Positions 1,399 through 58,298 of a DNA stretch of 64,000 nucleotides are shown here, piece by piece. The position numbers and the translations under genes are program-made. Every line of letters starts with the position of its first letter. The first letter of the stretch is position 1. The stretch is from Mayamaea pseudoterrestris (Eukaryota), in contig BROI01000006.1 in NCBI GenBank assembly GCA_027923505.1, forward strand, positions 372,001 through 436,000, in the 5' to 3' direction. Below the pieces are notes generated by a model that was not told the DNA's origin, searched no databases, and saw only the letters and a list, made by a program, of their open reading frames with translations.

Positions 1399-4300
1399 TC
1401 AAACTCTCTGGGCTTCTTCATAGCCCGACATCTCATCTGCTTTAATGTTCTCCAATTGCTTTGTCTTGCTAAGTCCAACCTTTCCCGAAATGTCCCCGCT
1501 CAAAAGAGAATCCTGTCGCTCGCCGCTGCTCGTGACGCGTAAGACTGTAATTGCCGACACATGTACATTTTCCTCCAAGGTAGCAGACAAGTCCAACTGC
1601 TTGCCTGTGTAATCAATGCTCCAAAAGAGAATCTCTCCATGTTCGTGTCCTGTCACCACAGATATCCCATTCTCCATCCACTCTGGGCAATTTGTTGAGA
1701 CAGCACAGGTGGGCAGGCTCGCCTTGTGGTTAACTAGTCTTGCAATCAAATTTCCATTAATGTCGAAAATAGTGACCAGCGAACCGACAAGCGTTACCAC
1801 GTTGCCGTTGCTGTTGTTTATTGAAATGGATATGACCGGATCTTTTGCTTCGCTTATCTCCAGCCTTCGCACGAAAGTGTACGTTCTTAAGTCCCATAAA
1901 AGACAAGAGCCTTCCCCGCAACCGCTTGCAATCATTCCAAACTCCGTAGAAATATCAATGCAGGTGATGTGTGATCCTTCATGTCCGCAAAGCGTGCATT
2001 TTACGCTTAGCCGGTTATCCGCATATCGCCAAACTTTTAGCGTTGAGTCAAGACCGCCCGTGACGAGCCAATCGCCGTTCAAGGACGCCTTCGCTGCAGT
2101 AATTGGAGTTCGATGTAGCGCATCATGAAAGCTGATCGATTTACTTGGTTCATTAGAACGCGCCGACGTAATACATGAATGGATGCTGACGCCGTTATTG
2201 ATACCACCAAAGCGCACATAGCGCTTCGATGGCAACATTAATGCACACATCCGACCAACACCAACCAACTGCAACTTGTTAATGAGACAAATATCTCCCA
2301 CTGCTGTCTCAGACTGCCCATAGAGTCCCAGTCTGCACGTATCTGTGGATACACACTCAACCGAAACGCGATTGGGAGCCCCGACGATGCAAAAAGGTGG
2401 TGTCAGCGAGGCGAGGAACAGTAGCGTGCCCATGTCCATGACTCTGCCTCTGGACGAGTATCCTGGGATTCTTTGAGGAAAAGGGCGCCGCTCAAGGCGA
2501 CTTGGTGTTTGGCCAAAATTTTGTATTTGTGCAATAGTAGATGCTTTCTGAACTGGATCCTCCATTGATTCGAGGTCTACTTGTCCTTCATATGTCACAT
2601 GGACAAAAACGTTCATTGACTTTACAGCCTCGCTGCCTCGTTGCTTATACCCAAAAATTAAATCTGCCCAGTGATGTAAATTGCGGCTGACATACTCGCT
2701 CTCAAGTGCTTGCCGATTTATTCGAACAAATAGTTGAGGGTCTCCTTTCGCCCATTTAGGTAGAGAAACATCGTGGACTGTTTTGCCTCGTTGCGTTTCT
2801 CCAAAGTCAAAATGATTGGTGTTCGTCAGGAAATCGGGAAGGTAAAAGAACTCAGGGATTAGTTCGCGAACGTCCTGCAGATTGTCTGTACTCGCGCTCT
2901 TCCAGCTGCGACCGACATCGTGGAACAGACGATCTGCGAGATCGAAACGTCCACCTTGGAGTGATAAAGCCAACCGAGAGAAAGGTTCGAGACGCATCAG
3001 ATAATACAACACATAAGCCGCGCATGAGTAGTGAGTACCGTAGTGGAACGGGGGCGGATCGTCGTCAGTAAAGCAGGTTGATGCCAACGCATCATACCGC
3101 TCGCGAAATTGTTGGGCGCGTTGTTCACCTATACCTCCCATCGGCTTGGAAAGGTCCCGGTATGTCGCTGGATCGTCTAAGTCAATCTCATCGCTGTCAT
3201 AGTCAGCGATCACCCAAGGAAAAACAGGATATTGGGTCAGGTCATTAAAGGTCCTTCCAGCAAATGAATTAAGATGCATGATGAATTCAAAATTTGTCAT
3301 CTTCCGATTCACCCACTGCGATACAACTTTGGCTTTTAAGTTATTCATGAATTTTGTGTAGCTTATGAAGTTGCCGTAACTCGAACTGAAGATGCTCTTT
3401 GGAAGCTTGGATTGGAGGACTTTAGTGAGAACCTCTTCTCGTTCGTCATTATTGCTAAAGGCGACAAGTGTGCTTTTGCGATGGACATCGTGGAATTCAA
3501 GGGCTGTGTGTTGCAGCTGATAGCGTCGCCGATATACGGAATATAGCTCGGAAAATGAAATTCTTTGACTTCGATGTTGGTAAAGTACGTCGTGTGGAGA
3601 TTGCGCAGAGCTGCTTTTTAAGCGGTGGCCTTGCTTTGTGTTTTTGGAGAGCATTCGTTCCTCGTTCAAAGCTGCGATTTCAACTAATGACTTTTCTTCG
3701 CTCACTTTGAAGTTCTTTGGGCGCAAATTGATGTTAAAACTAGACTGCTCGCGATCTACTCGAGTGATCTTTCCATCCATACCGAAGCCGCCAACCTGCT
3801 CGAATCCGTCAATAATGTAGAGAGCATCTTGACACCAGAGGAGAAGGGCTTTTGTAACTTCAAGGCCCGTGCAGCGCCTGACGTTGTACGATTTCTCAGG
3901 CCAGTCTCCAGGCTGCAAAAGACCAGTTATCAATCCATAACTCGACGAATCTTCATGATCATTGTCGGCCTTATCAGTTGAATGGTTAACCGCTACGTCC
4001 TCTGCTGTAATGACGGTATCTCTCGCTTCTTCTTGAATCGCCTGAGCGAAATTCAGAGCATTTGCGTCGACGGCCGCACTCACAACGCCATCATAATCCA
4101 GCTCCTCTTCTTCAATGCTTAATGCTCGCTTTATGTTAAGATCTTTTAACAGCTCGGCTGTAGCCTCAGTCTCAGCGTTTACAAAGAAAGTGGGATCTAA
4201 CGCATCAGTAACAGACCCCTGGACATTAGTGCATTGTTCGCTGCCATCCAAGTTGTAGATCCCATGAAACTCGTAATTGGGAAGTAATCGTCTTCGCTGC

Positions 4301-7300
4301 TGCTCGCTGCCCTCTGACAAATCCAATTTCCAACGGTTAACATTCTCAACCTCCAAACTGACATTTAAATGACTCACTGGCTTCCCGTTTCTCGCCTTCA
4401 AGGAAGCCAACCAAGCACTAGAACTCATTGCCGCCGTCTTGTTTTGTGGCCCACCTTCCCAAATGGATCCGGAACCCTTTAGTTGGCGAAGAAGAGTTTT
4501 CCACTTCGTTGCGCCGTAAGCCAGATCGTCAAAGCCTTGCCTCTTCCACCTGGCATGACTGTCTGTTGTCCGCTCAGCAGATCGACGAGCCAGCTCGCCC
4601 CGTTCAATTCCTCCAAGTATCGAATTGTCAGAAGTATGTGTGGTGAGCTTTAAGAGCATAAGCTTTTGTTTGTTTTCGATCGCTTCGTCATGAGGGGTGG
4701 CTATTTTCGAGAACTCGGGAAACATTCGAGCGACTCTTTCGTCGACGGCCTTAAACACAAGATCAACCTGAGACTGGTTGCGTTCAAACCACTCAAAAAA
4801 CGATGAGTACTTTTTCTTAACTGACGACGCAGTAGCGCCGGATTTATTTGAGACGGAAGCTGCTTCGTGCGCTGTAAGCAATGCTCGAAAACCTCCTCTG
4901 TTTACCACATCAATTGTTTCAACTTGGTTCCCAGTTTTGATCTCTGCGACGAGAAGCTCCGACATCACGGACAATCGATGTTGCAAAAGAGCGACAAGAA
5001 TTGAGACGGCTGGTCCCCTTATGTCCTCTCGAGCATTATTTAAAGATCGTTGCAAGACAATAATGAGCGGCGCAACAAAAACAACTTGCGAGTTGGTGTT
5101 GTCACTGATGTCCGGATAAGAAGCGCTTTGATCCAGCGTACATCGTACAAAGCTGGCAGACAACCAAGTCGGAAAAAGGCGAGATTGATGTGGTGGTCTT
5201 GCAACAGTGCTGGTGGATGGGACACGCCTTCTAGCCTTCCGCTCTCGAGGTTGGACAAGTAGCAAAGCATCAATGTTCGCTTCGATAAGAGCAAGTACAA
5301 CAGCTTGAAAGTCTTCATCGCCCGGATCATGATAGCTCATTGGCAGGGTCATCTTTAGGGCCGCAACACACATTAGTCCGGCTATATGCGCAGCATCAGT
5401 AGTGAGAAGCGTGTGCTCAGCGTTATCCAGCGAGGCACTAGCCTGGACCCCAGAATCTATTAATGTCTCAAGAATCGACAAAGCAATTTTCACTGATTCC
5501 AGAGAAGCTTCCGCTGTAAAGTAAGCATTCGTTTGCTGGTTAAGTAAAACTGAACACAGACCCACGCAGTTCCCCATGAAGACAGCGTCGCCGTACTCCA
5601 ACACTTCTTGGATAACAGATTGACACTGCTCAATGAGTATCAAATGCAATGCTTCAACCTGCTGAGCAGATGCATGTATCGGAAAAGATTGAAACATGGT
5701 ATGTAATACAAGCGCTGCTGATGGTGCTGAAACCATAGCATCTAGAATAACCATGCGAAGTAGTCGCACCATGCCAAGGCTACCATCGTCGACCTCATTG
5801 GCGGTTCCCACAAATCTTTCTGTTGGGGGTATGTCCTTGGGAGTCGCGGAAAGCATAACGCGCCGTCGAGGTCGAGTCGACATCCGCTCGTTGTATATCA
5901 AGCATAAAGCTTGCGACAAAGGTTCCAAAAAATTGCGAGTGGTGCAAAATTGCTGGAAGGCCGGGGAGACTTCGTGTCTGTGTGCAATTAAATAGATGAC
6001 GGCAGCGTTCGTTTCTCGAGCAGTTGCACAGGCTACAGCATTATTGGACATGTATTTTATGTTTCTTCCAATGCATTCCGCTAAAAGACCAAAAATCTCA
6101 CTAGACGGATCATCCGACACTTGCTCCGTTCTGTATTCACTCGATTCACTGTCGAAAACTTCGCAAAGCTGCTCAGGATCAAGACGAGCAAAGAATGGAA
6201 GGTGAAGGATGGGGACATTTAGAAGCTCGCTCAGTAACGTCAGCGTGATGCCAGGGCAAGTGGCGAACTTTGGGACACTTAGAACAAATGGTGAAAACCC
6301 ACCAGCAGTCCAGAAGATCGATTCAAAAGCTGAGGAACCTTGTAACATTAATATCATCAACCGCAGTGTCGCTGATGCCGTAGCTTCTTCATGGCAACCT
6401 TCAAGCACTGTTGCGAACCAGACTGGCGTAAGAAAGCCCGAAAATGCGGAGAGGAAAGCTTGAGCTTGCTGGTGCTTAGGGTGTGTTTGATTTGTCGCTG
6501 ACTTGCCGCGCGTTATAAGTGTTGACAAGTAAGGTTGGTTCGGACTCGCTACACCACCAGAGTGGTATCGCACAGGGTTCTGAGGAACGCTCTTCTCGCC
6601 GGAATGCTTCGGTTGCGGCGCTGGCGGCGCGTTAGCAACAATTTCGTTAACTCCATCAACTATGAGCTCTTCCAGCAATCGCACTAAATATAAACGTGCC
6701 GTGGGACCAGGACGCATCCGTTCTTCCGCTGTTATTGATCCGCTTATATCTACGACACCCTGTTTAAGGGCAATATCATGCACTTTCGTCGATGAGCCAG
6801 AGATTGCCAGCGTAAAAATAATGCCATCTGCTACCGCTTCGAGATCACCGGGCGTCAACATGAATGTAAGAACTCTCCGTAACAATTTCTTGCAATCAAG
6901 TAGAAAACTGTTTCCAGGGTCACCGCCCACAGTAACGTCCGAAACTAGCGGTGATTCTGAGTACCACCCTTGCTTCACTTGTTTTATCCCCTCAATATCA
7001 CCAGCGCTCGCGCACCGTTGGAGTGCAACTTCAGAAGCGCTGTACAGCTCTGCGCCTTCGATCATGAGATGCAGTGCCCAACGTATGATCCCGACTAAGT
7101 GTAGCCGGCGAGCATTGAAAGATTTGTGCAAGGCTTTCTGACTAACAAGAACATTTAATGCAGATAGTAGTCGGAGCGGTATGCTAGGACCGCATCTTTG
7201 AAGGTCCCAAACCTGATGGTTTAGCAAAAGGTGCTTCATCGCATCGACATCTGACAGCACCCATGACGTCTCAGCGTCATCGTCAAACTGCACATCCACC

Positions 7301-10300
7301 GACAAGGGAGCGACCGTGTCAAAATCGAGCGAGGGCGCGAATCCTGTAACGGCAAAAGCAAGACATTCGTCAAGACAACTTATGTCCGCAAGGCCTCTTT
7401 CTTTTATTAGTACAGCCAGGATACGGTAGCCACCCCCAATTTGCATTGACTCCAGGTTGGGCGGATGCCTGTTTGTGCCTTGTCGGATTAATCGCAATGC
7501 ATACGCGAGGGACCGAGGCGATGATGCAGCATCCACCAAAGGAGTAAGCAAGTCCGGGCCACCAGCTTGGAAGAGGCAGTCTGAAAACCCAACGCTTGTC
7601 ACTAAACTATCCTTGCCGTATACAATCGCATCGGTCGCAACATTGTCATTGGAGAAATTCAGACGAGCCAAATTCACAAGCCTTTCGAAATGCAGAGTTC
7701 TTTTGCTTGGAAGAACATCATTACGCAACCTGCTGTTGGCCGCAAGCGCTTGATAGGCGAATACAACGCAGTCTGGAGGGATTACGCAAAGCAAACCCAC
7801 TGCTGATAAATCATCTCTATCCGACTCTTGCGGCCCAGTCGTGCTCAACCCTGCGCCCTCAAGTTTTTGGATGTTGCGTCGTTTAAGCGCACTGGCTATA
7901 CTCCCTGGTTCGCCGGTCTCAGCGAGCAGGGAAAACGTTAAAGTGCCGGTGGCAGCCAATGACATTCTTTGCGGTCGATCCCCCCATAAAATACTGGGAA
8001 AGTTAGGACCGCACGCATGTACTGCCGCTGCATCGAGATCGAGCAAGACCATCGATAAAAGTATACATGGTCCAAGCTCCCATGGCGAAATTCGTCCACG
8101 AACTATTCCAGAGGCAGCTAAAGTAGGATTAGGTGCACCGATGATGACAGAAGCATTGAGTGGCAAGGTTACAGAATCAATCCGCACTTCTGCTTCCAAC
8201 GCTCGTCCGTTAATGAATAAAGAGAAGCTGGATTTTCGCGACATCATTGTCCGCTTTGACGGCAAATAAGTAAGGAGCACATGGTGCCAAACGTCTGTCG
8301 TCAGTGGAGACACAGGAAAACAGGTAGGTTCGCCCCTGTATGATGCCGATGACACCACGGTGAATCGTTTATTTGACAAATCATACCAGACGGATAAATA
8401 AGACCGTTCTTGGTTAGCAGATAAGGGGTTCGTGGGTGCACAAACGTCAAAAATGTAGAGATTGCCTGTGCCATCAAACTCGTCGGATGAGCGCAGTCGA
8501 AGCCATGTGGAAAACGAAAACCCAGATCCGAGGAGCGGGGCCCACACCTTGTCAGTAGTGTCCTCAGTAGGCGATGCTGATTGCTGCAGTGCCTTAGCGT
8601 CTAGAGATGTGATTTCAACAAAAGCCAGTCGAGACTCCTGTGCAACACGACGTAGCCTGTCGTCTACATCGACATCATGCAAGAGGACACCGATGCTGTT
8701 AATCGAATCGCCTCCCACCCGAACAAGCGGAAACGCATTCGAAAATTCAGCAATTTCAGAAGCAAAACGCAATCTCTCGCAAAAAGCGTCATCTTGAAGA
8801 CGATCGATTGTCGGTAGAGGAGATGACGCTATCCCATTCGTACACATACTTTTTCCCACCGAGGAGCTTATTACGGGCAGTATAATGCGGTCTTCAGACT
8901 GTTGATTCATCAAAAGAGGCCCAAGCACGGAACGAAGAAGACCAACAAAGTCTCTGTATGACATATTGAAGGAGGCGAGTCGACGTAGAAAAGATAGCAG
9001 GAGCGGCTGGAGTGATTGGCCAGTAAACAACAGAGGAGCAAACTCATCCGGACTGGTCAAACTACATGCGAGCCCGCATGTTGCCAACGAGCGCAAATTC
9101 GAGCTAGTGGCTTCATCGCCACATGCGCGTAGTATCGGTTCCAGTGTTTGAAGCGCCTCTGCACTTTTATTATCAGCTTCCGACAAAAAGAGAGTCATAC
9201 GAAGGAGCAAGCGAATAGCGTCTGGGTTTCTGATCGATGCTGGCTCATCGACAGCGTCAACTTTCAGCTCAGCATCAATATGTCGCAAGCAAAGATCCAT
9301 GACTTTTGAGGACGATTCTGTTTCCATAACAGCAGTTCCAAAAATTGCGGCAGCTAGGTCCGAATAAAAGCTGCATTGTCGTACAAAGCTTCGATTTAGT
9401 GCCCCAGGTGACGCGAAGGAAGACTGTGACGAAACTGGATCCACAAATATATTGCAAGGCAGAATCACAGGACATGCATCAATCGATGATGCACCATCTT
9501 TATTCTTCATCCCAAATGCTGCATCCAGTGTACCGAAGACAGCTTTTAAACACTTCAGAACTTCTTTTTGGTGATAATCAGATTGCATCGCCATACCCTC
9601 CATACATAATACGACCGACAAAATTGTTTCAAAGCCCTCACACGTACGGAACGCCTCTCGAGCCGACTGTGTCGACTCTAAACTTGAACGCACAATCAAA
9701 AGAACCACAGTTAGTCGCTCCAAAGCAATGTTTTGGCCATCCGTGTCAAATTTTGAGGATGCCAGCGGCTCTCCAAGTTCACGTAGAAGAGTAAACACAA
9801 ACCGAAGTTCACGCTCATGCATGTCAAGAGATACAGAGGAGGACATAAAAACTTCGTAAGCACTCGCAATGGAGCCCACCGCGTCGTTACCTAGTTCATT
9901 TATTGCATACCGCAGCAGCCTGTGTATTGTCAACGCGCCCAATTCCCTTGCGGCGACAGCTTGCTGCGACACCAAAAGTCTTACAAGGTTGCTTACAATA
10001 CTGAACATAGAGTCAAATTCGGTTTTAGAAAGAGGCATTCCATTGCTGCCATGCGTTAAAGTATGCGCTTCCAGCAGTTCAACAAATTTAGGCAAGTTGA
10101 TGACGAGAAAGCTTTCAGTCATGAGCGGCGCAACGCGCTGATCGAATTGCAAAAGCTTTTCCAAAGTATTGCCCATCAGAGTCAAATCTTGCAGTAACAT
10201 GACCTCATTAGTAGAGTTAATTGTCGTCGACAACGATTTCTTGCTCAAAAGAGCCTGACACAGAGCGAAAAACACTTCAACGTACGCAGTCAGTGGTGTC

Positions 10301-11936
10301 GTCTCGTTTTTAATTTCAATCGCTGTCAGAACAAACTCAAGTGTCTTTAATATCGACATCTTCGTTTCTTCATTCGCGACACACGGTAGCGCCAGTACAG
10401 AGTACGATAGGACATGTTGTCGACCCTCTAAAATTTCGTAGTTCCGAGGGTGATCCGAAAATATCTGGAGTATTGCACTTAAAAGTGCGGACATTGCGTC
10501 GTACGCGTACTCGTCCTGTCCGACAATAATTTCCGACGCTGCCGATCGCATATTCATCGCAACTTCAATCGATATAGCGGCCAGGTCCGATAAAGGTTCC
10601 ATGTCAGCGATTGGATACGGCAACGTATCATTTTGCCTCCGCTTACATTCACGGAGCAATGGATTTGACCCAACAAGAAGTTCCTCTAGAATCTCAAATA
10701 TTTGCGTATTGCTGGCAACCTTTTCAGCATTGTCAATCGTTGCTCCACCGGGACAGCATGCCAAGGCAGGAAGCAACTCGACGAGCTTTGCACCATGCGG
10801 GTTTGTTCCATGCTTGATCGCAAACCGAAGCACATCATAGCCACCAGCTTCCTCGAAATCATTGACAAGATCCACCGTCAAGAACCGACATGATGCCACG
10901 AGCAGTTTCACAATCGTCTCCAACGCAATGTACCAAAGGCCATGTTTCTCCGCGTCAGCCCCAGTGAGTCCTTTGGATGCAGCAGATGCAATAGCCGCTG
11001 GCCCTTCAATTTCCGTCGGAGCAATGCCACACAGTTCCTTGACATCATCCGTCATGTGCATGATCATTCTTCGATCATGAATGAACCACACCAACTGTCG
11101 CGACAAGCATCCATCCGCCACGGCAATAATCACTTCGGACGCAGCCTTGGCAACGTGCACGCCCGACTCTGGATACGACGCCCCCGACAGTGCCAACAGT
11201 CCAAACAGATGCGGCCGCAGTTGCTCACCAACCGTCACGTTGACGCAAAGGCAACATAGCAGTTTCGAGACTTTGGTGGTTGCTGTCACGGCAATGGGAG
11301 TGATGATTGTAGTTGTTTGTGACGTTGCAGCTTGCTCGGAGGCGTGCTGCAGCTCCACGACGCGCAGCAGGCGCATGCAATGCACCAAGTTTGGCGGCAG
11401 TTCATTCTCCACGCAGCGAGCGACGAAATGTTCGTAAGTTGAATGTTTCAAGAGAATGTCAATGTCAGATGCAGGAAGATTGTCCGGATTATCATCATCA
11501 TCTTCTGTCGTCGTTGCACATGTTGCTCCCAAAAGTGTCAACAGTTCCGCCTTCCAAGCAATCGAATTTCCTTCCTTACTCTTTGCCGCCAAAACAATCT
11601 TTTGGACGCCGTCACCAAGGTTACGCGCCGCCGTTCCTACTTCCTTGTCTAGTCGATTCTTGTCACGCAAGGAAAGGAAATTGTTGCTCGTGCCGTGCCT
11701 CTGGCTGGAGTTACTGTTGCTGCCAGCGCTGTACAAAAAGTGGTTGGTGTGAATGTAAGTCGATTGATTCATGCACATGTACTAGAATAGGCATTCAGCC
11801 ACAATTATATCTTTACTTACTGGCCATCTCCCCACGCACGAAACGTGTCTGTATCCGAAACCTCTCGAGGAGTGCTTGCATCATCCTTTTCGGCCGTCGC
11901 CGAAGCATTATTCTTGTTCCCAAAGAGTCTCCACAT
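1399..11936 (-). CDS. BEACH-domain protein (ConA-like, PH-BEACH, WD40; ALFY/LvsA/SPIRRIG-like). Exons 11936-11821 and 11728-1399
   Basis: BEACH motifs HLNSFAGRTFNDLTQYPVFPWV, FHYGTHYS, DVRELIPEFFY, FGQTP, followed by WD40 repeats. Upstream exon MWRLFGNK... ends CA|GTAAGT and joins TACAG|C in frame (92-nt intron). No C-terminal FYVE seen. Confidence 0.93.
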
Positions 11937-37029: not shown

Positions 37030-40000
37030 TTAGACACCTTCGATTCTGTCTTCAACCTCCGCGTACAACTCTTGGAGACGTTCGATATTTTCTTCGCTCG
37101 TGTCCCAGTAACCGCGACCGTTTGCTTCAAGGAATGTAGTTACCATGTCGCGGAAAGCGTTGGGGTTGGTGTCCAACAGCCGCTTCTGCATTTCAGGATC
37201 GTTGATAAAAGTATCATTCGCATCCTCAAATACGAAGTTGTCGACTTCTCCAGCAGTCGCCGACCATCCCATGGTATTGCGCAGACGCTTTTGAATCTCG
37301 CGGACACCTTCGTAACCCGTCGAAAGCATACCTTCGTAAAACTTGGGATTCAAAAGCTTAGTGCGAGCGTCAAGACGGACAGTCTCAGCCAAGGTACGAA
37401 CTTGAGCGTTGGCGGTGGTCGTATCGGCCATGAGTGACATTGGTTTCTTCTTATCATCGCGCAGACTTTGTACCACCTTAGTTGGGTCAGAGTCATAGTA
37501 ATGGGAGACGTCGGTGATGGAGATTTCCGACGAGTCGAGGTTTTGGAAGGTGACATCGACTCGCTTGAGTGCCGCCTTGAAAAGATCCGCTTGTTGCTCC
37601 ATCATTCCTGGCTTGTCAGCATTAAACGCGAAACCCTTTCGCGTTAAGAACTGGTCTTGGAGCTGCGTCTCATCTTCCCATCCTCCATTCTCAATAGCTA
37701 AACCAACGTTGGCACTGTACGACCCGGCGGAGTTGGAGAAGACACGGCAGGCAGCATCACGAAGACTGATGCCCAACTCCTCGGCCTGCTCCAAGGCATG
37801 CTTGCGAACGAAGTTCTGATCGATTGGCTCGTCAGCTTCAGCAGCCATCTTGATTCCTCGATCCATTAAGTTCATCTGGTTGATGAACAAATCGCGGAAG
37901 ACTCCCGAGCACGATACAACAACGTCGACACGCGGACGACCAAGCTCTTCAAGCGGAATAAGCTCCACCTTGTTAACGCGGCCCAGCGAGTCAGCGACGG
38001 GTCGGACACCAACAAGAGCAAGGACTTGGGCAAGCGACTCTCCGTACGTCTTGATGTTGTCTGTACCCCACAAGGTGAAGGCAATGCTCTCGGGATAGTC
38101 GCCTCCCTCACTCTTGAGCTTCTCGAGCAACTTACGCACTACATCTTCTGACACTTGAACAGCTGCCGCCGTTGGAATTGAAGACGGATCTAGAGCATGC
38201 ATGTTGCGTCCAGTCGGAAGCACCTCGGGATTACGAATTGGATCGCCACCAGGAGCAGGCATCAAGAATTCGCCATTGAGTAGCTCCATGATCCCGCCAA
38301 GTTCGTTATTGGCAACGACCTGACGAAGGCAAAACTCGAGATACTTGATAAGTGGCTCCAGACGCTCTTCGGAGACACTTGGAAAGCCAGCCGCAATGAT
38401 CGCGTTGGTCCATGGCTTCTTGCTACCCATCATTTTGCTGAACATTCCACCAAGCTCATCCGCGAAGGACTTGACCTCCTTGACACGGCCATCCGGGCCA
38501 GTTGACTGCTGAACAAGCGCTCGAACCGCTGCTCTGGCGGCTTCAGTAATCTTGGTGTTAAGCTCAACGTCCTCAAGAACACCCTGATTGTTGCCACGAT
38601 AGATCTCATTAATTTCACGCCCAATGGAGGCTGCAATGACTCGTGGAAGGCTTTCAATACCGTCTTCAGGACGATCAAGCTGCGCAATGTTGACAAGTGT
38701 GGCAATTGCCTCCTCGGCCGTAGGAGGAACACCAACAGTGTGAAGTCCGCAAGGAAGCAGTCGGCTCTCAATCTGCATGATCTGAGCGTAAATGGCACCG
38801 ACAATCTCGTCACGTCTCTCAATAGTATCATTGATGGCATCATATGTCTCAACAGCCGGAAGGTCAACATCCTTATCCAAGTTGCAAGTATAGGACGTTG
38901 AAACAATCGAGTTGACAATGGCAGCGCCACGGCCTTCGTTCTCCCTTAATCCTTGATACGACGAGATGAGTTCCTTCAACTCCTTCAAGCCTTTGTAAAG
39001 ACCAGCATTTTCGGCAGGAGGAGTTAGGTACGAGACAGTTGCAGAGTACGAGCGACGCTTTGCAATCGTTGCTTCCGAAGGATTGTTTGCCGCGTACAAG
39101 TACGCCGAAGGCAGCGAGTTGATGAGTCTGTCAGGGTAGCACGTTCCTGACATACCGACTTGCTTTCCTGGCATGAACTCGAGACTTCCGTGCGTTCCGA
39201 AGTGCAAAACTGCATCTGCCTTGAAAATCTTCTCGAGGTAAGTGTAATAGGCGGCGAAACCGTGATGCGGACTAGCAGACTTAGCAAAGAGCAGGCGCAT
39301 CGGATCGCCTTCGTATCCAAACGACGGCTGCACTCCAATGAACACATTTCCAAACTGCTTGCCGTAGACGACCAAGTTTTGGCCGTCCGAATTGAGGTTG
39401 CCTGGCGCCTTGCCCCAATTCTCCTCGAGATCCGTCGCATACGGAGTCAACTCATAATATTCGTCAGTGCTCATGCGGTACGCAACATTCAGTTCTGGCG
39501 ATGAAATGCGAGCCTCTGGATCGTTCAAAACAGCCTCCATAATGGCTTCCTTCTCCATGGGTGCGTCGCCAATTTCGTATCCTTCCGTCTTGAGCTGCTT
39601 CAATACTGCCTTGATCGAGTCGAAAACATCCAAGTAAGCAGCAGTTCCTACGTTACCCTTGTCTGGTGGAAACGAAAAGATTGTAATGGCAATCTTCTTG
39701 TCCTGGTTGGGCTTGTTGCGAAGGTTTGCCCACTTGAGCGATCGATCCGCCAGCAAGTTAACCCGGTCTGCCAGCGGAACGCTTCGGCCAGTCGCACCCT
39801 CACGTCCGGCGTAAATGATAGGCTCAATGGCTCCATCAATCTCCGGTAGCGAAACTTGCAAGGCAACTTGGATTGGATGCAGACCAAGCTCGGACGATTG
39901 CCACTCTTCAAACGACTGGAATACAAGCGGAACAGCGCACATGTACGGACGGTTCAGCTTCTTGAGAACCTTGGCCGCCTTCTTGTGATCCTGTGACGCT

Positions 40001-41496
40001 GGCCCACCCACCAAGGCAAAGCCAGTCAAGTTGATGACTGTATCTACAATGGGCTTGCCTGAAGCGTCGTAAAAGTAGTCCTCAATTGGTCCCGAAAAGT
40101 CCAAACCTCCAGAGTAAATGGCCACAACACGCGATCCCCGACTCTCCAGCTCGGAAATGAGCGAAACGTAGTGCGTATCGTCCTTGGTGTTAATGTGCGA
40201 CTTTTGTAGAATGATACCAATGGTTGGGGCCGTCTTTGGGTCAATGCCAGCGTCCGGACAAAATTCGGAGTTATACCACTTGAAGTACTGCTCGTTGGTT
40301 TCAAAGACGATCGATGGGGCGACTGGGTGCCAAATGGCCTTGTCGGGCAGCAAGACTGGTTCAGCGGCAATCTTCTTCGTCTTGCCCACCATGTTCGCCT
40401 TGATAGGTGCAATGTAGTCCTGTCCGACCATGGTGAGGAGCGATTCCAAGTTCTCGGGCGAACCTCCAAGCCAGTACTGAAAGGACATCATAAAGGTGCG
40501 AGCGTCGGCCGCCTTGTCGCTCGGTAGAAACTTGAGCACTTTGGGCAAGGTGCGCAACAGCTTGAGCATGCCTTCCTCGAACGAGCTTCCGTCCTCCTGT
40601 TTCTTCTTCTTCATAAAGTCGGAGATGACACTCTTGCTTTGTCCAAGATTCTTCATGGTGAAGCTTCCAACCTTGTTGAGTCGCATGACTTCCGGCATGG
40701 AAGGAAACACCAAGACAGCGTCAAGATTGTCACGCGCCGGCTGCACGACTTCAACTACCTTTTCGGCCAGTTCCTGCACGAAAATGAGCGATCCAATGAA
40801 CACGTTCGCTTCGGCAACATCTTGCTTGAACTGCGCAAACGCATCATCGTTGCGAAGTTCCTCCAACAAGTATCCGACGCATTCGACAGCCATGTCATCG
40901 TTGCCAACGTTGATGCGCTTGACGGCGGCCGTCATGCTCGATTGGTACTGACTCTCCAGGACAACGTAGACAACCTTCATCACGGGGCGGTTGCGCGGGT
41001 TCTCCGGAACGACACGGCGACTCTCGGCGTTGGAAGCTGTGAAACCGCCGCCCATGGGCGACGAGGTAATGGGATCCGTCACGACCATGCTGAGTGATGA
41101 TGAAGTTGCAGAAGCATGTTGCTGCAGTGCGCCGCCGAGAAAGGCTGTTGTCTTGGTGCTCGCGCTGATTTGTTTCGATGGCTGCCATCTGTAAAGTCGA
41201 AGCGGAAAGATTATGAATAGCAATCAAATGTTAGTCAACCATGATGTTTATTAAGGACGTAAAGTCAGAACATTGAGAGGAAAGACTTGCTCCAAGCATC
41301 CTTCTTGGATCGCGTCGTCGATTTTCCTCGTCGACCGCGCCCCGTAGAACCTACGTAGAACGCTGGTACAAAAACTTCAACTTGCACGGATCGGCATGGT
41401 TCGTCGAATGACGAAGTGCAAAATGAGCAACGAAACTTACGCATTGGACACCGACAGTGCAAGCAGAGCGCTCACAGCGACCTTGTAGTAGACCAT
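37030..41496 (-). CDS. chlH: Magnesium chelatase subunit H, plastid-targeted. Exons 41496-41441 and 41188-37030
   Basis: [83 protein letters not shown]. Splicing gives signal peptide [22 protein letters not shown]. Confidence 0.97.
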
Positions 41497-46790: not shown

Positions 46791-47011
46791 CGCGGCCGCC
46801 GCGCCTCGTCCACCATCGCGTTTTCTTCCATCCAAACGCAACTCCAAACAACAAAAGCGACTGGCTCAGCTGATGATTGTTTGCAGACGACAGTCTTGAC
46901 CCCCGAAGCGTCTACAGCAACGTAAATCACCATCTTGTTGTTAAAGATCAAACGAATCAACAAGAAGGCTCCAATTTTAGCTACAGCAGCATTCGTTCGT
47001 TGCCAAACAAA

Positions 47012-48343
47012 ATGATGTTCCAACGATCGCTCTTGACATGGCTGCTTCTAGCAGCAGCTTGCCAAGCCTTTGTGCCATCCAAATCGAGTCAAAATCTAAA
47101 CACGCACAGAATTACGCAGCAATCTCATTCATTCACATCATCAACAACATCATCATCATACTCGACATCATCAACCCGTTTGTTCATGTCGACGCGGACG
47201 GGCGGCCGCGACTTTTACAAAATTTTGGGCGTGGCAAAGGGAGCATCCACCCAAGAAATCAAGCGTGCCTATCGCCAAAAAGCCAAGGAGTTTCACCCCG
47301 ACAGCAACCCCGGCTCCGACACGACGGAGCAGTTCCAGGAAATCAATCGCGCCTACGAAGTGTTGAACAATCCGGATTTGAAGAAAAAGTATGACATGTT
47401 TGGAGAGCAAGGATTGGGAACGTCCGCTGCCAGTGACGCCACATCGGGGAGTCCGTTTGGTGGAGGAGCTGGCTTTGGGCAGGAGGTGGATTTGGGTGAC
47501 ATTTTCGATTCGTTCTTTGGCGGCGGTGGCGGCATGGGCGGAGGCGGTCGACGAAGCGCGCGCACGCGGGGACCAGTCGTTGGTGACGACTTGCGGTTCG
47601 ACTTGGAGCTTGACTTTAAGACGGCAGTCTTTGGCGGAGAAGAAAAGGTGCGCATTCGCCACCAGGAGACGTGTGGAACGTGCACCGGTAACGGTGTCAA
47701 GCCGGGGAGCAAGGTGTCGACGTGCAGCTCCTGCGGCGGGTCGGGTGTGACGGTGCAAATCACGCGCACACCGCTCGGAAGCTTTCAGACGCAGCAAACC
47801 TGCCCAACGTGCCGTGGTACCGGACAGCGGATCGAGGAGTATTGCGGCACTTGCGGTGGCCAAGGCGTCACGCAAAAGACCAAGCAGATCAAGGTGACCA
47901 TTCCTCCAGGTGTTGAGAACGGCAACAAGCTGCGCGTCCGAGGTGAAGGTGACGCTGGCCCCAACGGCGGACCTCCAGGCGATTTGTACATTTTCCTCAA
48001 GGTGAAGGAGGACGCCAAGTTTCGTCGCGATGGACCAGAAATATACTCCGACGTGTCGATCTCATACGTGGATGCTATACTGGGAGCTTCCATCAAGACT
48101 CCCGTGGTGGATGGAGAAGTTACCATCAAGGTACCTCCCGGTACGCAGCCGGGTCAAGTGATGCGACTCAAGGGCAATGGTGCACCGAAGCTCGGTAACC
48201 CAGACGTTCGAGGCGACCACTACGTCACAATGAACATTGAGATACCCAAGAGTATGTCTGTAGAGGAAGAGGAGTTGATCAAGAAACTAAAAGAGTTACG
48301 CGAGAAGAAGCAACAAAAGAAAAAAGGAGGAATATTTGGGTAG
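47012..48343 (+). CDS. dnaJ: Plastid-targeted type I DnaJ chaperone
   Basis: Signal + CQA-FVP; J domain DFYKILGV...FHPD; G/F region with DIF; four CxxCxGxG repeats; C-terminal domain. Confidence 0.95.
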   Translation: MMFQRSLLTWLLLAAACQAFVPSKSSQNLNTHRITQQSHSFTSSTTSSSYSTSSTRLFMSTRTGGRDFYKILGVAKGASTQEIKRAYRQKAKEFHPDSNPGSDTTEQFQEINRAYEVLNNPDLKKKYDMFGEQGLGTSAASDATSGSPFGGGAGFGQEVDLGDIFDSFFGGGGGMGGGGRRSARTRGPVVGDDLRFDLELDFKTAVFGGEEKVRIRHQETCGTCTGNGVKPGSKVSTCSSCGGSGVTVQITRTPLGSFQTQQTCPTCRGTGQRIEEYCGTCGGQGVTQKTKQIKVTIPPGVENGNKLRVRGEGDAGPNGGPPGDLYIFLKVKEDAKFRRDGPEIYSDVSISYVDAILGASIKTPVVDGEVTIKVPPGTQPGQVMRLKGNGAPKLGNPDVRGDHYVTMNIEIPKSMSVEEEELIKKLKELREKKQQKKKGGIFG

Positions 48344-53734: not shown

Positions 53735-55088
53735 TTACAACTCTAATCCATGAGCCAAAAGGGGCAGCAATATCGTCAAAATTTCGTGCGCCGCCTTGGG
53801 GTTACCCGGCAAATTGGCAACAAAGGTGGTGCCCCGAAGGCCAGCCGTCCCACGCGATAGGCTGGCTAGCGGCTGCTGGCGACTACATTCCATCGACACA
53901 AAACCCATCAGACCGGATGCTTCTTGGTAAAGTATTTTGCGTGTTGCTTCGGGCGTGACATCGCGCGCGCTCAAGCCTGTACCACCCGTTGTCAATATCA
54001 AATGTGGCGTCGCCGAAGCGTCCTCGCCGTCGCACCAATCCATGAGCCGTGACTGAATTGCTTCCATGTCATCAGGCACAATGGCTTTTCGTGTTGATAC
54101 ACGAGCATTGCCTAACAGCTCCTTGACGCTTTCTTCCACTGCCGGCCCAGAAAGATCACCATTTTCGTACTCGTTATGAAAGGCGCGATCGCTAACGGTG
54201 AGAATGCTGACGCGAATCTGTGCATGCTTCCATTTGTAACAATCAGCAGATATGGACGGTGGCGCATACGGCGGAATTGATCGATTGATACTTCTTGCGT
54301 TGTCATCATGGCTGACGGAAATGCGATGGCCCTGCGACGGAGTCGGGAACGTTTCGCAACAAACATTTGAGGAAAGCGCTATATTCTTCTCGCTGCTGCC
54401 ATGTCCCTCATTAGAAACTGCACTTGATTCAGCTGCAGCCTCAGCTTGAGCGGACGTAGGAGCTTCTGCATTTACGCGCGTCGGCAACAATTCTTCATTG
54501 TGTTTCGCCCAGAGCGAACGACTAGATTGATATCGCTCCAACTGCTCGTCGGTTGCCTTTTGCTGATGCTGCTTCTTCCAATCTCCATACTGCATACCAT
54601 AGACAATTTGAGCCGCTTGGTCGTATCCAAACTGATTCAACTGATCGGCGTAAGGATGTTTGGCGTGAATGGAATCGTCGCTAACGAGCGATGCTTCCGA
54701 CGCTGCGTCGTCAACCAGTTTTCTCGCTTCCAAAACCATCCACTAAGAGAATAATGAGAAGAATTAGTTGAACGAATAACGCAAAGAGTTGTATATCAAT
54801 TCCCAATGATTCGCAGCACTGCGATCTGTGAACCGTCGACAATCGTCACCAAGCGCGCGACTTCAGCATCTCGAGACTCGCTCTCAGTCGACAAACAGAG
54901 CCAGACACCTAGCGTACCTTGGCGAGGCAATTTCGACAAAAGCCCGAAAGCGTCATGAGGTCCATGTTGGAAACCTGATCACTCCGCTCCTGCAAGTGTT
55001 GGCAGAGAGACTCAAAAGCTCCGGCTTGTAGCTGCCGAACAAGAGATGCGGGGAGACCGATTCCATTTTCATTTTTATAGGAGTCCAT
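53735..55088 (-). CDS. DUF1244-like domain fused to molybdopterin adenylyltransferase (MogA/Cnx1G/gephyrin G domain). Exons 55088-54918 and 54742-53735
   Basis: Exon 1 QAGAFESLCQHLQERSDQVSNMDLMTLSGFCRNCLAK|W spliced at AAG|GTACG...TTAG|TGG, then IVYGMQYGDWKKQHQQKATDEQL. C-terminal ILTVSDR, DLSGP, IVPDD, LILTTGGTG..RDVTPEAT, LSRG.AG, NLPGNPKA. Confidence 0.88.
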
Positions 55089-55341
55089 TGTAGCTGATGA
55101 TGTTCTATAGAGTTGATGGGTGTTTGTAGGTGGTAACAGCAATACAGTAACAAACGAACGCGAGTCGAGCGAACTGTGCGCCTCGGCGGATGCAAGATCT
55201 CAGCCAGTACCGGTGCGAGATTTCGAGATACCGGTACGACCTACGACATTTTCGAAATGAAAGTTCCTCCACGACGAGAACCACAAGATGGCACATATCC
55301 ACGGCAGCGCTGTCAATTGCAAAGTTCATCCAACCAAAACA

Positions 55342-56243
55342 ATGAGCGACTCAATCGATCCCCAAGAATGGAAGGAGTAAGTTAGTAAGGAATGCATGCC
55401 CTTTGATGGTTCATTGCAACTCGTCCTCTCAAATCACTTTTTTCGCATTCTTCCAGACTCGGTAACAAGGCATTTGCCGCCAAGCAGTACAACGATGCCA
55501 TCCAGCACTACACCAAGGCTATCTTGTACGACAAGTCCAATCACGTATATTACTCCAATCGTAGTGCTTGTCACGCTGGACTCAAGCAGTGGGCGGAAGC
55601 CGCGCGAGATGCCAAGGAATGCATTCGCCTTGATCCATCCTTTGTCAAGGGATACTATCGGCTTGCGCTGGCACTCAAGGAGCTTGCGGATTATGAAACG
55701 GCAACTCATGCGCTGCGACAAGGATTGGCGGCAGCAAAAAATGACGCCAGCAGCATGGAACCGTTGCAGAAGCTGTTGAGGCAAGTGGAGCAGCTGCAGC
55801 GATCGTTGAATGCTGAGAAAGAGGAGAACGATACTGCAACCTTGCCGCAGCGTCACAGCGCTGGCAGTTCGACGTTATCCGCAGCGGCAGCCAAGCTTGA
55901 CGAAGCCTCGTCGCGCGAGCTCTACGATTTGGAGGTGCAAGCGACGCAATCAAGCCGCGACTTGTCAGTCGTCGAAAACCAACTGCTTCGTCTGGAGCGT
56001 GACAAGCGACTCGCCCAAGTCACAAAGGAGGAAATTAGTCAATTACCAGCTGAAACAGCCTGCTTTCGAAGTGTGGGTAAGATCTTTTTGAAGTCGTCGC
56101 AGGACCGAGTGACGGAATACTTGGATGAAAAGGTTTCAACGACTACCAAGCAGCAGCATGATTTGACGCAAAAGAAGGACTACTTGGAACGACGATTAAA
56201 GTCGCAGCAGCAGAACATGAAGGACATCTTGTCGCCGGCGTAG
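55342..56243 (+). CDS. TPR (STI1/HOP-like clamp) domain fused to prefoldin subunit 1-like domain. Exons 55342-55376 and 55457-56243
   Basis: WKE|LGNKAF...YTKAI, YSNRSAC, KGYYR form three TPRs. C-terminal coil-hairpin-coil with FRSVGKIF and QKKDYLERRLKSQQQNMKDIL resembles PFDN1. Confidence 0.85.
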
Positions 56244-56533
56244 ATACGAGTGTCCACAATGCGGACTGACTATCACATGTGCAGTGTAAACCTGCGCATG
56301 CAACCAATAGAAGTCATGCTTCCTAGATTAGTCATTTACCTGTATTTTTGTAGCATGCAATGCGGGACCATATAACTGCTTTAACAGTGTTTGTAGATAT
56401 CAGCCATAGGGATATCCAAGAGGAGAGGAGGGATCCCGAATTAAGTTATCAATCGAGACGCGGTCAGACAGGAGTGACTGTGCGACACGGTGCAACAACC
56501 ATCCGTCCTTCCATTTTCTCATTCTGCGCGACC

Positions 56534-58298
56534 ATGACGATGAGTCTCCTCGTTCCAACCAATAGCATCAAGAAGCGGTCGCAGCCGACAGACTTAAATG
56601 AGTCCATACATAGAAATGAGCCGCAAGGCAAAAAGAGCAAGAAACGATTGCAGCAGGAAGCTCGGGAACTGGCTGAGGAGGAACGGCTCGAGGCTTTGCT
56701 GTTTGGCGGCGGCGGAAAAACAACGTCTTTGCTTTCAAGTGATGCTGCAACAGCGCCAAAGCAGACTCGAGTCACAGAGGAACCTGCAGCTCTATTTGAG
56801 ATTGATCGAGCTGGTAACGAAATTTTAGATGTTACGGTAGATGACAACGTCGTCAACCAAGGACAAACGAACAATGAAACGACTGATGGGCGCGCCTGGG
56901 TTGATGTAGATGATGACTTGGTAGTCGATTTGATGCAAACTAGCCGGCTGAGAAAGTTGCGAACGTCGCGCGAGGAAGCAGCTGCTTCGGCGTTGCCCGT
57001 GGTAGAGTTTGAGTCGCGTCTGCGAAAGCGCTACGAGGAAACGGCGCAACTTGCTGCTCACACCGACTGGGCCCGTATTGACGTTGACAAAACTGATGCG
57101 GCATTTACCGACGACAAGGACGAGACTCTTGCTTTGTCAACATCGGCTCCATTCCTCTTGCATGCATCGGCAAAGTCGTCAAGCTTGCCGGCCAACGTTA
57201 TTGGCATGGTGCGTTGCAGCGACGCTAATGAAACGGATCCATGTCGATCGGTTGTACAGAGCGTACACTTTCATCCAACCTCCAATCCAGAGCAGCCCCT
57301 GATGCTTACTGCTGGTCTTGACAAGATGTTGCGTTTCTTTCAAGTTGGAGCTGATCATAGCGAAAAGGTCCACGGTATACAATGTAAGTGATGGTTGAAC
57401 AGTTCACTGCTATAACGTATCGCGTTTATATACTCCGCCATACTGATTCCATGCTCACTCCCTTGCTTCACTTTCAGTTCCGAAACTGCCAATCTACTCG
57501 GCATCCTTTTTGGGCTCTTCGGGTAATGTTATTGTCAGCGGCCGTCGATCTTTCTTCTACATTTACGATGCTGTCGCTGGCAAGGTAGATTTGGTACCAC
57601 GCATCCTTGGTCGACAAGAGAAAAGCCTGGAAAAGTTTAGCGTATCGCCTGATGGCTCCGTAATTGCATTTTATGGGAATGATGGTTATATCATCCTTGT
57701 CGACGCTCGCACCAAGGAATGGATTGCCGATTTGAAAATGAATGGAAGTGTTCGAGCAGTAACGTTTAGCGCAAACGGTGACTACTTATATGGAAGTGGG
57801 AGCGACGGTCAAGTTTATCAGTGGGAAACTGCCAGTCGACGTTGCATCGATCGATTTAACAATGAGGACGGTACCATTACAAGCTCTATGGCCTGTTCGT
57901 CACAGCACTTGGCTGTCGGCGCGGAGAGTGGAGTCGTCAACGTATATCAATCACAGAAACAGCAAGAAGAACCGCAACAAGAGCTACAGTCAAGTCGACG
58001 CAGCATTTTGAGCAACCGACAGCCAGTCAAGTCAATTATGAATCTGCATACATCATCGGACTTGGTGCGATTTAACGGCGACGGTCAAATTCTGGCCATT
58101 TCATCGCGGCGGGAACGCCAAGCGTTGAAGCTTGTGCACGTTCCGTCCCGAACCGTCTTTTCCAATTGGCCAACGACAAAGACTCCCTTGAACTATGTTT
58201 GGTCGCTCGACTTTTCGCCGCAAAGCAGGTTCATGGCGGTTGGTAACGACAAGGGAAAATGCCTTCTATACCGACTATCTCATTATAACAAGGACTAA
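56534..58298 (+). CDS. UTP18: U3 snoRNA-associated protein 18 (WD40). Exons 56534-57383 and 57478-58298
   Basis: EEERLEALLFG, AWVDVDD, RLRKLR, FESRLRKRY, TAGLDK, F..LPI, SGRR.FFY.YD, SGVVNVY, LKLVHVPSRTVFSNWP, LYRLSHY. Confidence 0.93.

Follow-up and report, generated by a model that had tools for sequence, protein, structure and literature searches.

Prefoldin alpha subunits have two beta hairpins and beta subunits have one, and both ends of a beta subunit sit at the far tip of its coiled-coil tentacle. The prefoldin subunits described to date are, to our knowledge, small, single-domain proteins. The complex is jellyfish-shaped, and Hsp40 and Hsp70 are said to support the transfer of clients from prefoldin to the chaperonin TRiC (accessible part of PMC8801880). 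The passage of clients between Hsp70 and the prefoldin/CCT route is usually drawn as cooperation, with no physical link known (same source), and the accessible part of PMC7293050 links plant prefoldins to Hsp90. In the PAQosome, the tetratricopeptide repeats (TPRs) of RPAP3 and the URI1-based prefoldin-like module belong to separate proteins, as far as the accessible part of PMC13153604 describes them. Here, we analysed a gene in a 64,000-nucleotide stretch (the window) of the raphid pennate diatom Mayamaea pseudoterrestris (assembly GCA_027923505.1, contig BROI01000006.1, positions 372,001 to 436,000). It combines an N-terminal carboxylate-clamp TPR domain and a beta-type prefoldin domain in one chain, separated by a disordered linker of about 20 residues. 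We consider it reasonably probable that this is a real, expressed diatom nuclear gene and the stramenopile orthologue of prefoldin subunit 1 (PFD1), carrying a docking module for Hsp70/Hsp90 tails on its prefoldin tentacle.

The coding sequence runs on the + strand from the ATG at 55342 to the TAG stop at 56241-56243 and consists of two exons. An initial annotation, made from the letters of the window alone, had placed a TPR-prefoldin fusion at 55342-56243, which is exactly this coding sequence: joining 55342-55376 to 55457-56243 gives 822 nucleotides (nt) and a product of 273 amino acids (aa) with exactly the sequence of database entry P0002, 'hypothetical protein MPSEU_000395900 [Mayamaea pseudoterrestris]'. 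The gene is laid out as follows.

55342..55376, + strand: exon 1, encoding residues 1-11 from the start codon on, plus bases 1 and 2 of codon 12; the clamp lysine K11 lies here
55377..55456, + strand: intron of 80 nt, GTAAGT...TTCCAG, phase 2, between WKE and LGN
55457..56243, + strand: exon 2, from the third base of the codon for residue 12 to residue 273 and the TAG, covering TPR1 (from L13) to the prefoldin domain
55360..55838, + strand, spanning the intron: TPR carboxylate-clamp domain, residues 7-139, assigned by Pfam, AlphaFold2 (AF2), Foldseek and the alignment with Hop TPR1
55839..55901, + strand: linker, residues 140-160, of low complexity and of varying length across the family
55902..56231, + strand: prefoldin beta (PFD1-type) domain, residues 161-270, assigned by Pfam, a search of the PDB, AF2 and Foldseek
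56061-56096, + strand: beta hairpin with the motif FRSVGKIF, strands 214-218 and 221-225

Exon 1 translates to MSDSIDPQEWK and the start of a Glu codon, and exon 2 opens with LGNKAF... and continues for 261 codons up to the TAG. From L13 to the stop the protein is encoded by a single exon in a single frame with no internal stops. The claim of the initial annotation that both halves share one frame therefore holds for the three TPRs and the prefoldin domain from L13 onward, but not for the motif WKELGN, which is split by the intron, with W, K and two bases of the E codon in exon 1 and LGN in exon 2. The intron just before LGN appears to be conserved in the family. In an alignment of 37 family members (A1), on which our residue counts and the full-length AF2 model are based, 8 of the 37 gene models read 'R-LGN' after unrelated residues. 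We regard these as mis-modelled N-termini, since reading through an intron that ends in AG|A at this same place gives exactly this. Some homologues from metagenomes carry an extra intron after 'SNR' that is absent from Mayamaea (loci L001, L006, L011, L013, L029 and L030).

A search of sequencing runs listed no RNA run for the gene. Contigs from four runs of one study (X1-X4), for which the kind of molecule is not on record, are 95-99% identical to the stretch, a degree of likeness that suggests a related strain. In X2, a contig of 499 letters connects 55375 with 55456 and skips 80 letters, which fits the predicted intron to within one base of alignment placement, and a 644-letter contig of X3 spans 55611-56250, from TPR3 to beyond the stop. 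As contigs of unrecorded molecule type, both carry little weight here, and gaps in the coverage of the intron and flanks by X2-X4 were not counted as evidence.

Two neighbouring genes could in principle have been joined by an artefact of annotation or assembly. We found nothing that speaks for this, apart from the short 5' exon, which is mis-called in several homologue gene models, and we give the possibility practically no weight. A single exon without stops encodes both the TPRs (from residue 13) and the prefoldin domain, and the same architecture recurs in independent data. Among 5.8 billion proteins, a word-indexed search picked out 3145 candidates; 279 of them match at E<=0.001, and 120 of these are listed. 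PF01920 is present in all 120 of these listed matches and a TPR family in all but one (P0019), which is cut at its N-terminus, yet retains the motifs YFSNRS and KGYYR. Fifteen of the 120 are full-length fusions from the MMETSP transcriptome collection.

We also scanned JGI metagenome contigs with a pattern derived from an alignment of five diatom sequences (A3), which yielded 33 loci. In 29 of them, and in 29 of 29 loci with enough upstream DNA, a TPR match on the same strand immediately precedes the prefoldin match, with a gap of 0-114 nt or, in one pair, an overlap of 3 nt. Two loci (L026 and L031) run off the end of their contigs and are uninformative on this point, and a further one (L033) is a weak 26-residue match without TPRs upstream. 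Locus L032 was rejected as a relative, being a chance match of the pattern on a bacterial-looking contig. No stop interrupts the reading frame between the last TPR segment and the end of the prefoldin match in 26 of these 29 loci, and in L006 and L011 the stops are confined to an intron-like insert within the TPR, after 'SNR'; the last TPR exon is thus open into the prefoldin domain in 28 of 29. The initial annotation had named transcripts that split the two halves as the sign that would speak against a fusion. Instead, the shared exon, the 15 transcriptome-derived homologues and the open metagenome loci all keep the halves together, and a chimeric gene model is rejected on the grounds of the single exon and its conservation. 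The presence of the two domains and of the clamp motifs is far beyond chance.

The TPR half has the residues and the predicted fold of a carboxylate-clamp domain. In the full-length AF2 model (mean predicted local distance difference test score, pLDDT, of 91.4; 92-98 in the TPR part), six helices at residues 7-19, 23-36, 41-53, 57-70, 75-87 and 91-104 are followed by a long capping helix at 109-139. Pfam assigns TPR_2 (E 2e-11) and TPR_1 (E 2.4e-09), with three stretches each, to the 261-aa product of exon 2. All five clamp residues are present (K11, N15, N46, K76 and R80), and they align onto K8, N12, N43, K73 and R77 of Hop TPR1 (phmmer, Hop residues 11-118), the five residues that we take to form its two-carboxylate clamp. 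N15, N46, K76 and R80 are invariant in alignment A1 (37/37). K11 is found in 29 of the 37 sequences, that is, in 29 of the 29 whose N-termini are correctly modelled. Ten more distant members all have the four invariant residues and 8 of the 10 have the first lysine; the exceptions are Aureoumbra, with an arginine, and P0130, the N-terminus of which is mis-modelled. The three TPRs with clamp-type residues that the initial annotation had read from the motifs WKELGN, YSNR and KGYYR are therefore confirmed by the motifs, by Pfam and by the invariance of four residues across the family.

In a sequence search against PDB chains, 113 distinct sequences match the protein at E<=0.01. Human Hop leads them (E 1.5e-34), with 61.0 bits for its TPR2B domain, 54.4 bits for TPR1 and 15.5 bits for the Hsp90-binding TPR2A. 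It is followed by SPAG1, SGT/Sgt2 (SGT at E 3e-17), PP5, TOM70, CHIP and RPAP3. Foldseek gives a consistent picture with PDB structures, some of which hold a bound chaperone peptide (the peptide-bound set includes 1elw, 3upv, 5lyn and 4cgv). The model superposes on the Sgt2 TPR with a root-mean-square deviation (rmsd) of 1.4 Å over 125 columns, on Hop TPR1 with an Hsc70 peptide at a template modelling score (TM) of 0.92, and on Sti1 TPR2B with an Hsp70 peptide at an rmsd of 0.9 Å and a TM of 0.92. The overall TM range for these three kinds of structure is 0.84-0.92, and CHIP and RPAP3, the latter with Hsp90 peptides, are matched as well. Judged by sequence and predicted fold, the TPR half is closest to Hop TPR1/TPR2B and to SGT/Sgt2.

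Like the TPR domains of Hop/Sti1 (TPR1, TPR2B) and SGT/Sgt2, the diatom domain thus has three TPRs, a capping helix and the five clamp residues, at 33-40% identity and a TM of 0.84-0.92 to 1elw, 3upv and 5lyn. The proteins as a whole differ. Hop has three TPR domains (TPR1, TPR2A and TPR2B) together with DP/STI1 domains and measures 543 aa (chain 7kw7_E), whereas the diatom fusion has a single TPR domain and 273 aa. The 16 Pfam families matched at E<=1 include neither an STI1/DP domain nor a further TPR domain, and the SGT dimerisation and Gln-rich domains are missing from them as well. We therefore rejected an identity as Hop/Sti1 or SGT, whose defining domains are missing among the Pfam matches. 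The names 'Hsp70-Hsp90 organising protein' and 'stress-induced phosphoprotein 1' that homologues bear in UniRef and JGI are misleading and wrong, because only one TPR domain and no STI1 domain were found. An identity as RPAP3/Tah1 was rejected too, as neither the RPAP3 C-terminal domain, which binds RUVBL1/2, nor a Pih1-binding tail is among the Pfam matches and a prefoldin domain takes up the C-terminal part.

The C-terminal half is a prefoldin domain of the beta type. Both AF2 models place a helix at residues 161-206, a hairpin at 214-218/221-225 and a second helix at 227-270, with pLDDT above 90 (91-92 for the domain). Pfam finds Prefoldin_2 (PF01920) with 55.9 bits, where the gathering cut-off is 27.6 (E 4.8e-15, profile positions 6-101, 96/106), so that the two families that the initial annotation had proposed to look for, TPR and Prefoldin_2, both occur in the exon-2 product. 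Searched against the PDB, the 122-aa C-terminal part finds human PFD1 first (E 2.5e-10), in an end-to-end alignment that pairs query residues 6-119 with residues 3-116 of the 122-residue chain, and archaeal beta subunits next. No human beta subunit other than PFD1 was matched by this single sequence at E<=10, and PDRG1 and UXT were not among the PDB matches of the domain. A profile of 16 members (A2) scores 75 bits with human PFD1 (E 4.4e-20), 40.5 bits with archaeal beta subunits, 24.2 bits with PFD2 and 14.6 bits with PFD4, and does not match PFD6 at E<=10.

In line with this, the domain model superposes on archaeal prefoldin beta with a TM of 0.93-0.94 and an rmsd of 1.0-1.1 Å, and on human PFD1 in the TRiC-prefoldin complex with a TM of 0.87 (29% identity, E 2.8e-5), while the Foldseek matches to PFD4, PFD6 and PFD2 are weaker (E 1.4e-3 to 6.3e-3). 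Both the beta-type prefoldin domain and, by score, its assignment to subunit 1 thus stand as first annotated: the domain passes the Prefoldin_2 hidden Markov model, is predicted to fold as helix-hairpin-helix, superposes on prefoldin beta subunits, and PFD1 outscores PFD2, PFD4 and PFD6 by sequence profile and by Foldseek. In the ESM Atlas, the best clusters for the C-terminal part are named 'prefoldin subunit 1' at a score of 0.78-0.79 only, which we treat as a lead and not as evidence. By every sequence and model feature examined, the domain belongs to the prefoldin beta/PFD1 family. Its best-scoring eukaryotic subunit, by sequence and structure, is human PFD1 (PFDN1; 7wu7_1, 6nr8_1), with which it shares the helix, the two-strand hairpin and the second helix. 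Canonical PFD1, in contrast, is a single domain of 122 aa (7wu7_1; 107 aa modelled in 6nr8_1), to which the diatom fusion adds about 160 N-terminal residues, namely the TPR domain and the linker. The linker is the least conserved, most gap-rich and most length-variable part of alignment A1, and its residues 141-155 are predicted to be disordered, with AF2 pLDDT below 50.

The fusion is widespread among diatoms and their relatives. It is held by both pennate and centric species, the named genera including Cylindrotheca, Seminavis, Nitzschia, Craspedostauros, Pseudo-nitzschia and Epithemia, and the centric ones Cyclotella, Thalassiosira and Discostella. An index-free scan of 1.84 billion representatives returned many more full-length clusters (240-300 aa) alongside ordinary multi-TPR proteins. 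When 30 entries drawn from these clusters and from the short profile matches were looked up, the fusion was found in seven further lineages of Ochrophyta: Fibrocapsa (Raphidophyceae), Pylaiella (Phaeophyceae), Aureoumbra (Pelagophyceae), Mallomonas (Synurophyceae), Chrysoparadoxa, Triparma (Bolidophyceae) and Phaeothamnion (Phaeothamniophyceae). Across the ochrophyte classes the prefoldin domain is conserved over its full length, hairpin included.

The ESM Atlas holds two clusters in which both families occur. One has 83 members (Prefoldin_2 in 99%, TPR_1 in 92%; score 0.98), with Oomycota as the commonest known phylum; the other has 61 members (score 0.97), with Bacillariophyta as the commonest. 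The first cluster is a lead only, hinting that the fusion may reach non-photosynthetic stramenopiles (oomycetes); if it holds, the fusion predates the ochrophyte algae.

These organisms might also possess an ordinary PFD1. Were this so, the fusion could be a PFD1-derived paralogue outside the canonical hexamer, working alone, as a homo-oligomer or in a PAQosome-type module, with an ordinary PFD1 encoded elsewhere filling the hexamer. Prefoldin-like modules that work with TPR proteins do exist in other eukaryotes (accessible part of PMC13153604), and at 29% (Foldseek alignment) the sequence shared with human PFD1 is modest. Searching with the single C-terminal domain among proteins of 67-214 aa gave 18 candidates, none at E<=0.001. 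The 16-sequence profile returned 27 short proteins of 62-223 aa, 11 of which still carry TPR Pfam matches and 16 of which match PF01920 only. Two of these 16 are fungal stand-alone PFD1s, one from Melanopsichium and one in a cluster containing the Komagataella 'Prefoldin subunit 1'; the search can thus find stand-alone PFD1s, because it turned up these two.

Of the 14 non-fungal PF01920-only proteins, the 12 inspected (all except P0282 and P0296) look like truncated fusions or fragments. Nine begin within or just after TPR3 (MKGYYRLATAQ..., MELKDYD...IRQGL...), and the other three have a TPR3-like remnant, start at an internal Met of the linker or lie as a fragment on a 523-nt contig. Among the 27 short matches, with 12 of the 14 non-fungal PF01920-only ones inspected, a stand-alone PFD1 from this lineage was therefore not found. 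This result speaks against a paralogue, as do the scoring of the domain as PFD1, rather than as another beta subunit, and its conservation over the whole length, hairpin included, across ochrophyte classes. We consider the paralogue unlikely.

We favour instead a PFD1 orthologue that takes the canonical place, and the idea that the fusion could act as a covalent bridge between prefoldin and Hsp70/Hsp90, already put forward in the initial annotation, rests on the clamp residues and the predicted fold. According to our model, the C-terminal domain would take the place of PFD1 in the alpha2-beta4 hexamer through its beta hairpin and coiled coil. Since the N-terminus of a beta subunit lies at the tip of the tentacle, the TPR domain on its flexible tether would hang beside the mouth of the substrate cavity. 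Here, its clamp may bind the free C-terminal EEVD-type tail of cytosolic Hsp70, and unfolded clients bound to Hsp70, such as actin and tubulins, could pass straight to prefoldin and from there to the chaperonin CCT/TRiC. Hop TPR1/TPR2B and SGT far outscore TPR2A, which makes Hsp70 the likelier partner; Hsp90 is the other possible one.

Clamp TPRs recognise a free carboxylate and a few residues upstream of it. The clamp might instead bind some other acidic C-terminus, be it that of a client, of a partner or of the protein itself, whose tail is Ser/Ala-rich and ends in Glu in part of the family. The TPR domain would then be a client-selecting or self-regulating arm. In line with this, 16 of the 37 family members end in [AST][AST]E, for instance in ...SASSE or ...PSAAE. 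The Mayamaea protein, however, ends in ...LSPA (56232-56240) and 21 of the 37 members lack the final E, so that binding of the own tail cannot be the conserved function. The closest matches in sequence and structure (Hop TPR1/TPR2B, SGT, CHIP, PP5 and RPAP3) are, moreover, all binders of Hsp70/Hsp90 tails, and we find a different target of the clamp quite improbable.

Several points weigh against a PFD1 orthologue that docks Hsp70. The searches for short proteins use an index of five-residue words and could miss a divergent paralogue, and a second, stand-alone PFD1 may exist in the genome of M. pseudoterrestris. The preference for Hsp70 over Hsp90 is judged only by likeness to TPRs of known preference. 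The whole-chain AF2 model has a predicted TM (pTM) of 0.55 and is silent on the mutual arrangement of the domains, although such a low value is expected for two domains on a flexible linker. Finally, the frame of the metagenome locus L020 (872-1594) is interrupted once, by a stop within the first helix of the prefoldin domain (...AQREL*LAEF...), which could reflect a sequencing error, a pseudogene or an unusual code.

The PAQosome (R2TP/prefoldin-like complex) is a described machine that resembles this arrangement, in that it combines a tail-binding TPR clamp with a prefoldin-type module (accessible part of PMC13153604). RPAP3 TPRs are among the sequence and structure matches of the diatom TPR. 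The statement of the initial annotation that the two modules are separate in the PAQosome agrees with the accessible part of the same source: there, they lie on separate polypeptides bridged by other proteins, whereas the diatom protein is one chain, and its prefoldin part is of the canonical PFD1 type. CHIP, PP5 and Tah1 also tether a single EEVD-docking TPR domain to a working domain, and the TPRs of CHIP and PP5 are matched by that of the diatom. Their effectors, however, are a ubiquitin ligase, a phosphatase or an adaptor, while the effector of the diatom fusion is a chaperone (prefoldin) subunit.

A literature search of full texts outside subscription journals and supplements found no description of a TPR-prefoldin fusion, and the accessible parts of PMC13153604, PMC8801880, PMC10893143 and PMC5768655 do not mention the fused form. 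To judge by these texts, the lineage-wide architecture is undescribed; its component modules are well known, and the sequences are already public under automatic names.

A bolder and more tentative proposal, which we hold possible but would not yet call probable, is that the stramenopile prefoldin hexamer is itself an EEVD-docking co-chaperone whose sole PFD1 carries the clamp, forming a hard-wired relay from Hsp70 via prefoldin to CCT. If this is true, each stramenopile prefoldin complex holds Hsp70 (or Hsp90) physically tethered where its substrate cavity opens. As a 'Rosetta-stone' fusion, the protein would then predict the same hand-off in animals, fungi and plants via a non-covalent contact as yet unseen, and if the oomycete lead holds, the arrangement is older than the ochrophyte algae. 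A natural fusion kept across a major eukaryotic lineage offers a concrete and testable model of the link between Hsp70 and prefoldin, for which transformable diatoms provide a simple genetic handle in the form of clamp point mutants or a deletion of the TPR domain.

The surroundings of the gene are those of a eukaryotic genome, with a G+C content of about 48-53% throughout the window and intron-containing genes. Further features of the window are:

1399-11778, - strand: BEACH/WD40 protein of 3459 aa, an ordinary diatom nuclear gene
37030-41223, - strand: magnesium chelatase H subunit (CobN-Mg_chel, 1196 bits), likewise an ordinary diatom nuclear gene
46877-48343, + strand: type-I DnaJ, extended at its N-terminus by about 110 residues and possibly targeted to an organelle, also an ordinary diatom nuclear gene
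53735-55142, - strand: upstream neighbour, apparently a fusion of DUF1244 with a molybdopterin-binding MoCF_biosynth (MoaB/Mog-like) domain
56360-58298, + strand: downstream neighbour, a WD40 beta-propeller gene in at least two open reading frame (ORF) pieces

In the upstream neighbour, DUF1244 is split between the ORFs 54909-55142 and 53735-54739. Contigs of X3 and X4 end at 54918, where their loose letters resemble the beginning of the 53735-54739 ORF in reverse complement, which suggests that an intron of about 170 nt lies between the two ORFs. Of the two downstream pieces, 56360-57391 has no Pfam match and 57510-58298 matches WD40. Between the fusion gene and this neighbour, a contig of X1 joins 56250 to 56531 and skips 280 letters, the contigs of X2-X4 all end at 56250, and one of these runs past this position with 72 unlike letters. 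Since the contigs of X1-X4 break or diverge at 56250, the 3' flank of the gene differs in the related strain. Contigs of X2 and X4 begin again at about 56535, which may mark the first exon of the WD40 gene.

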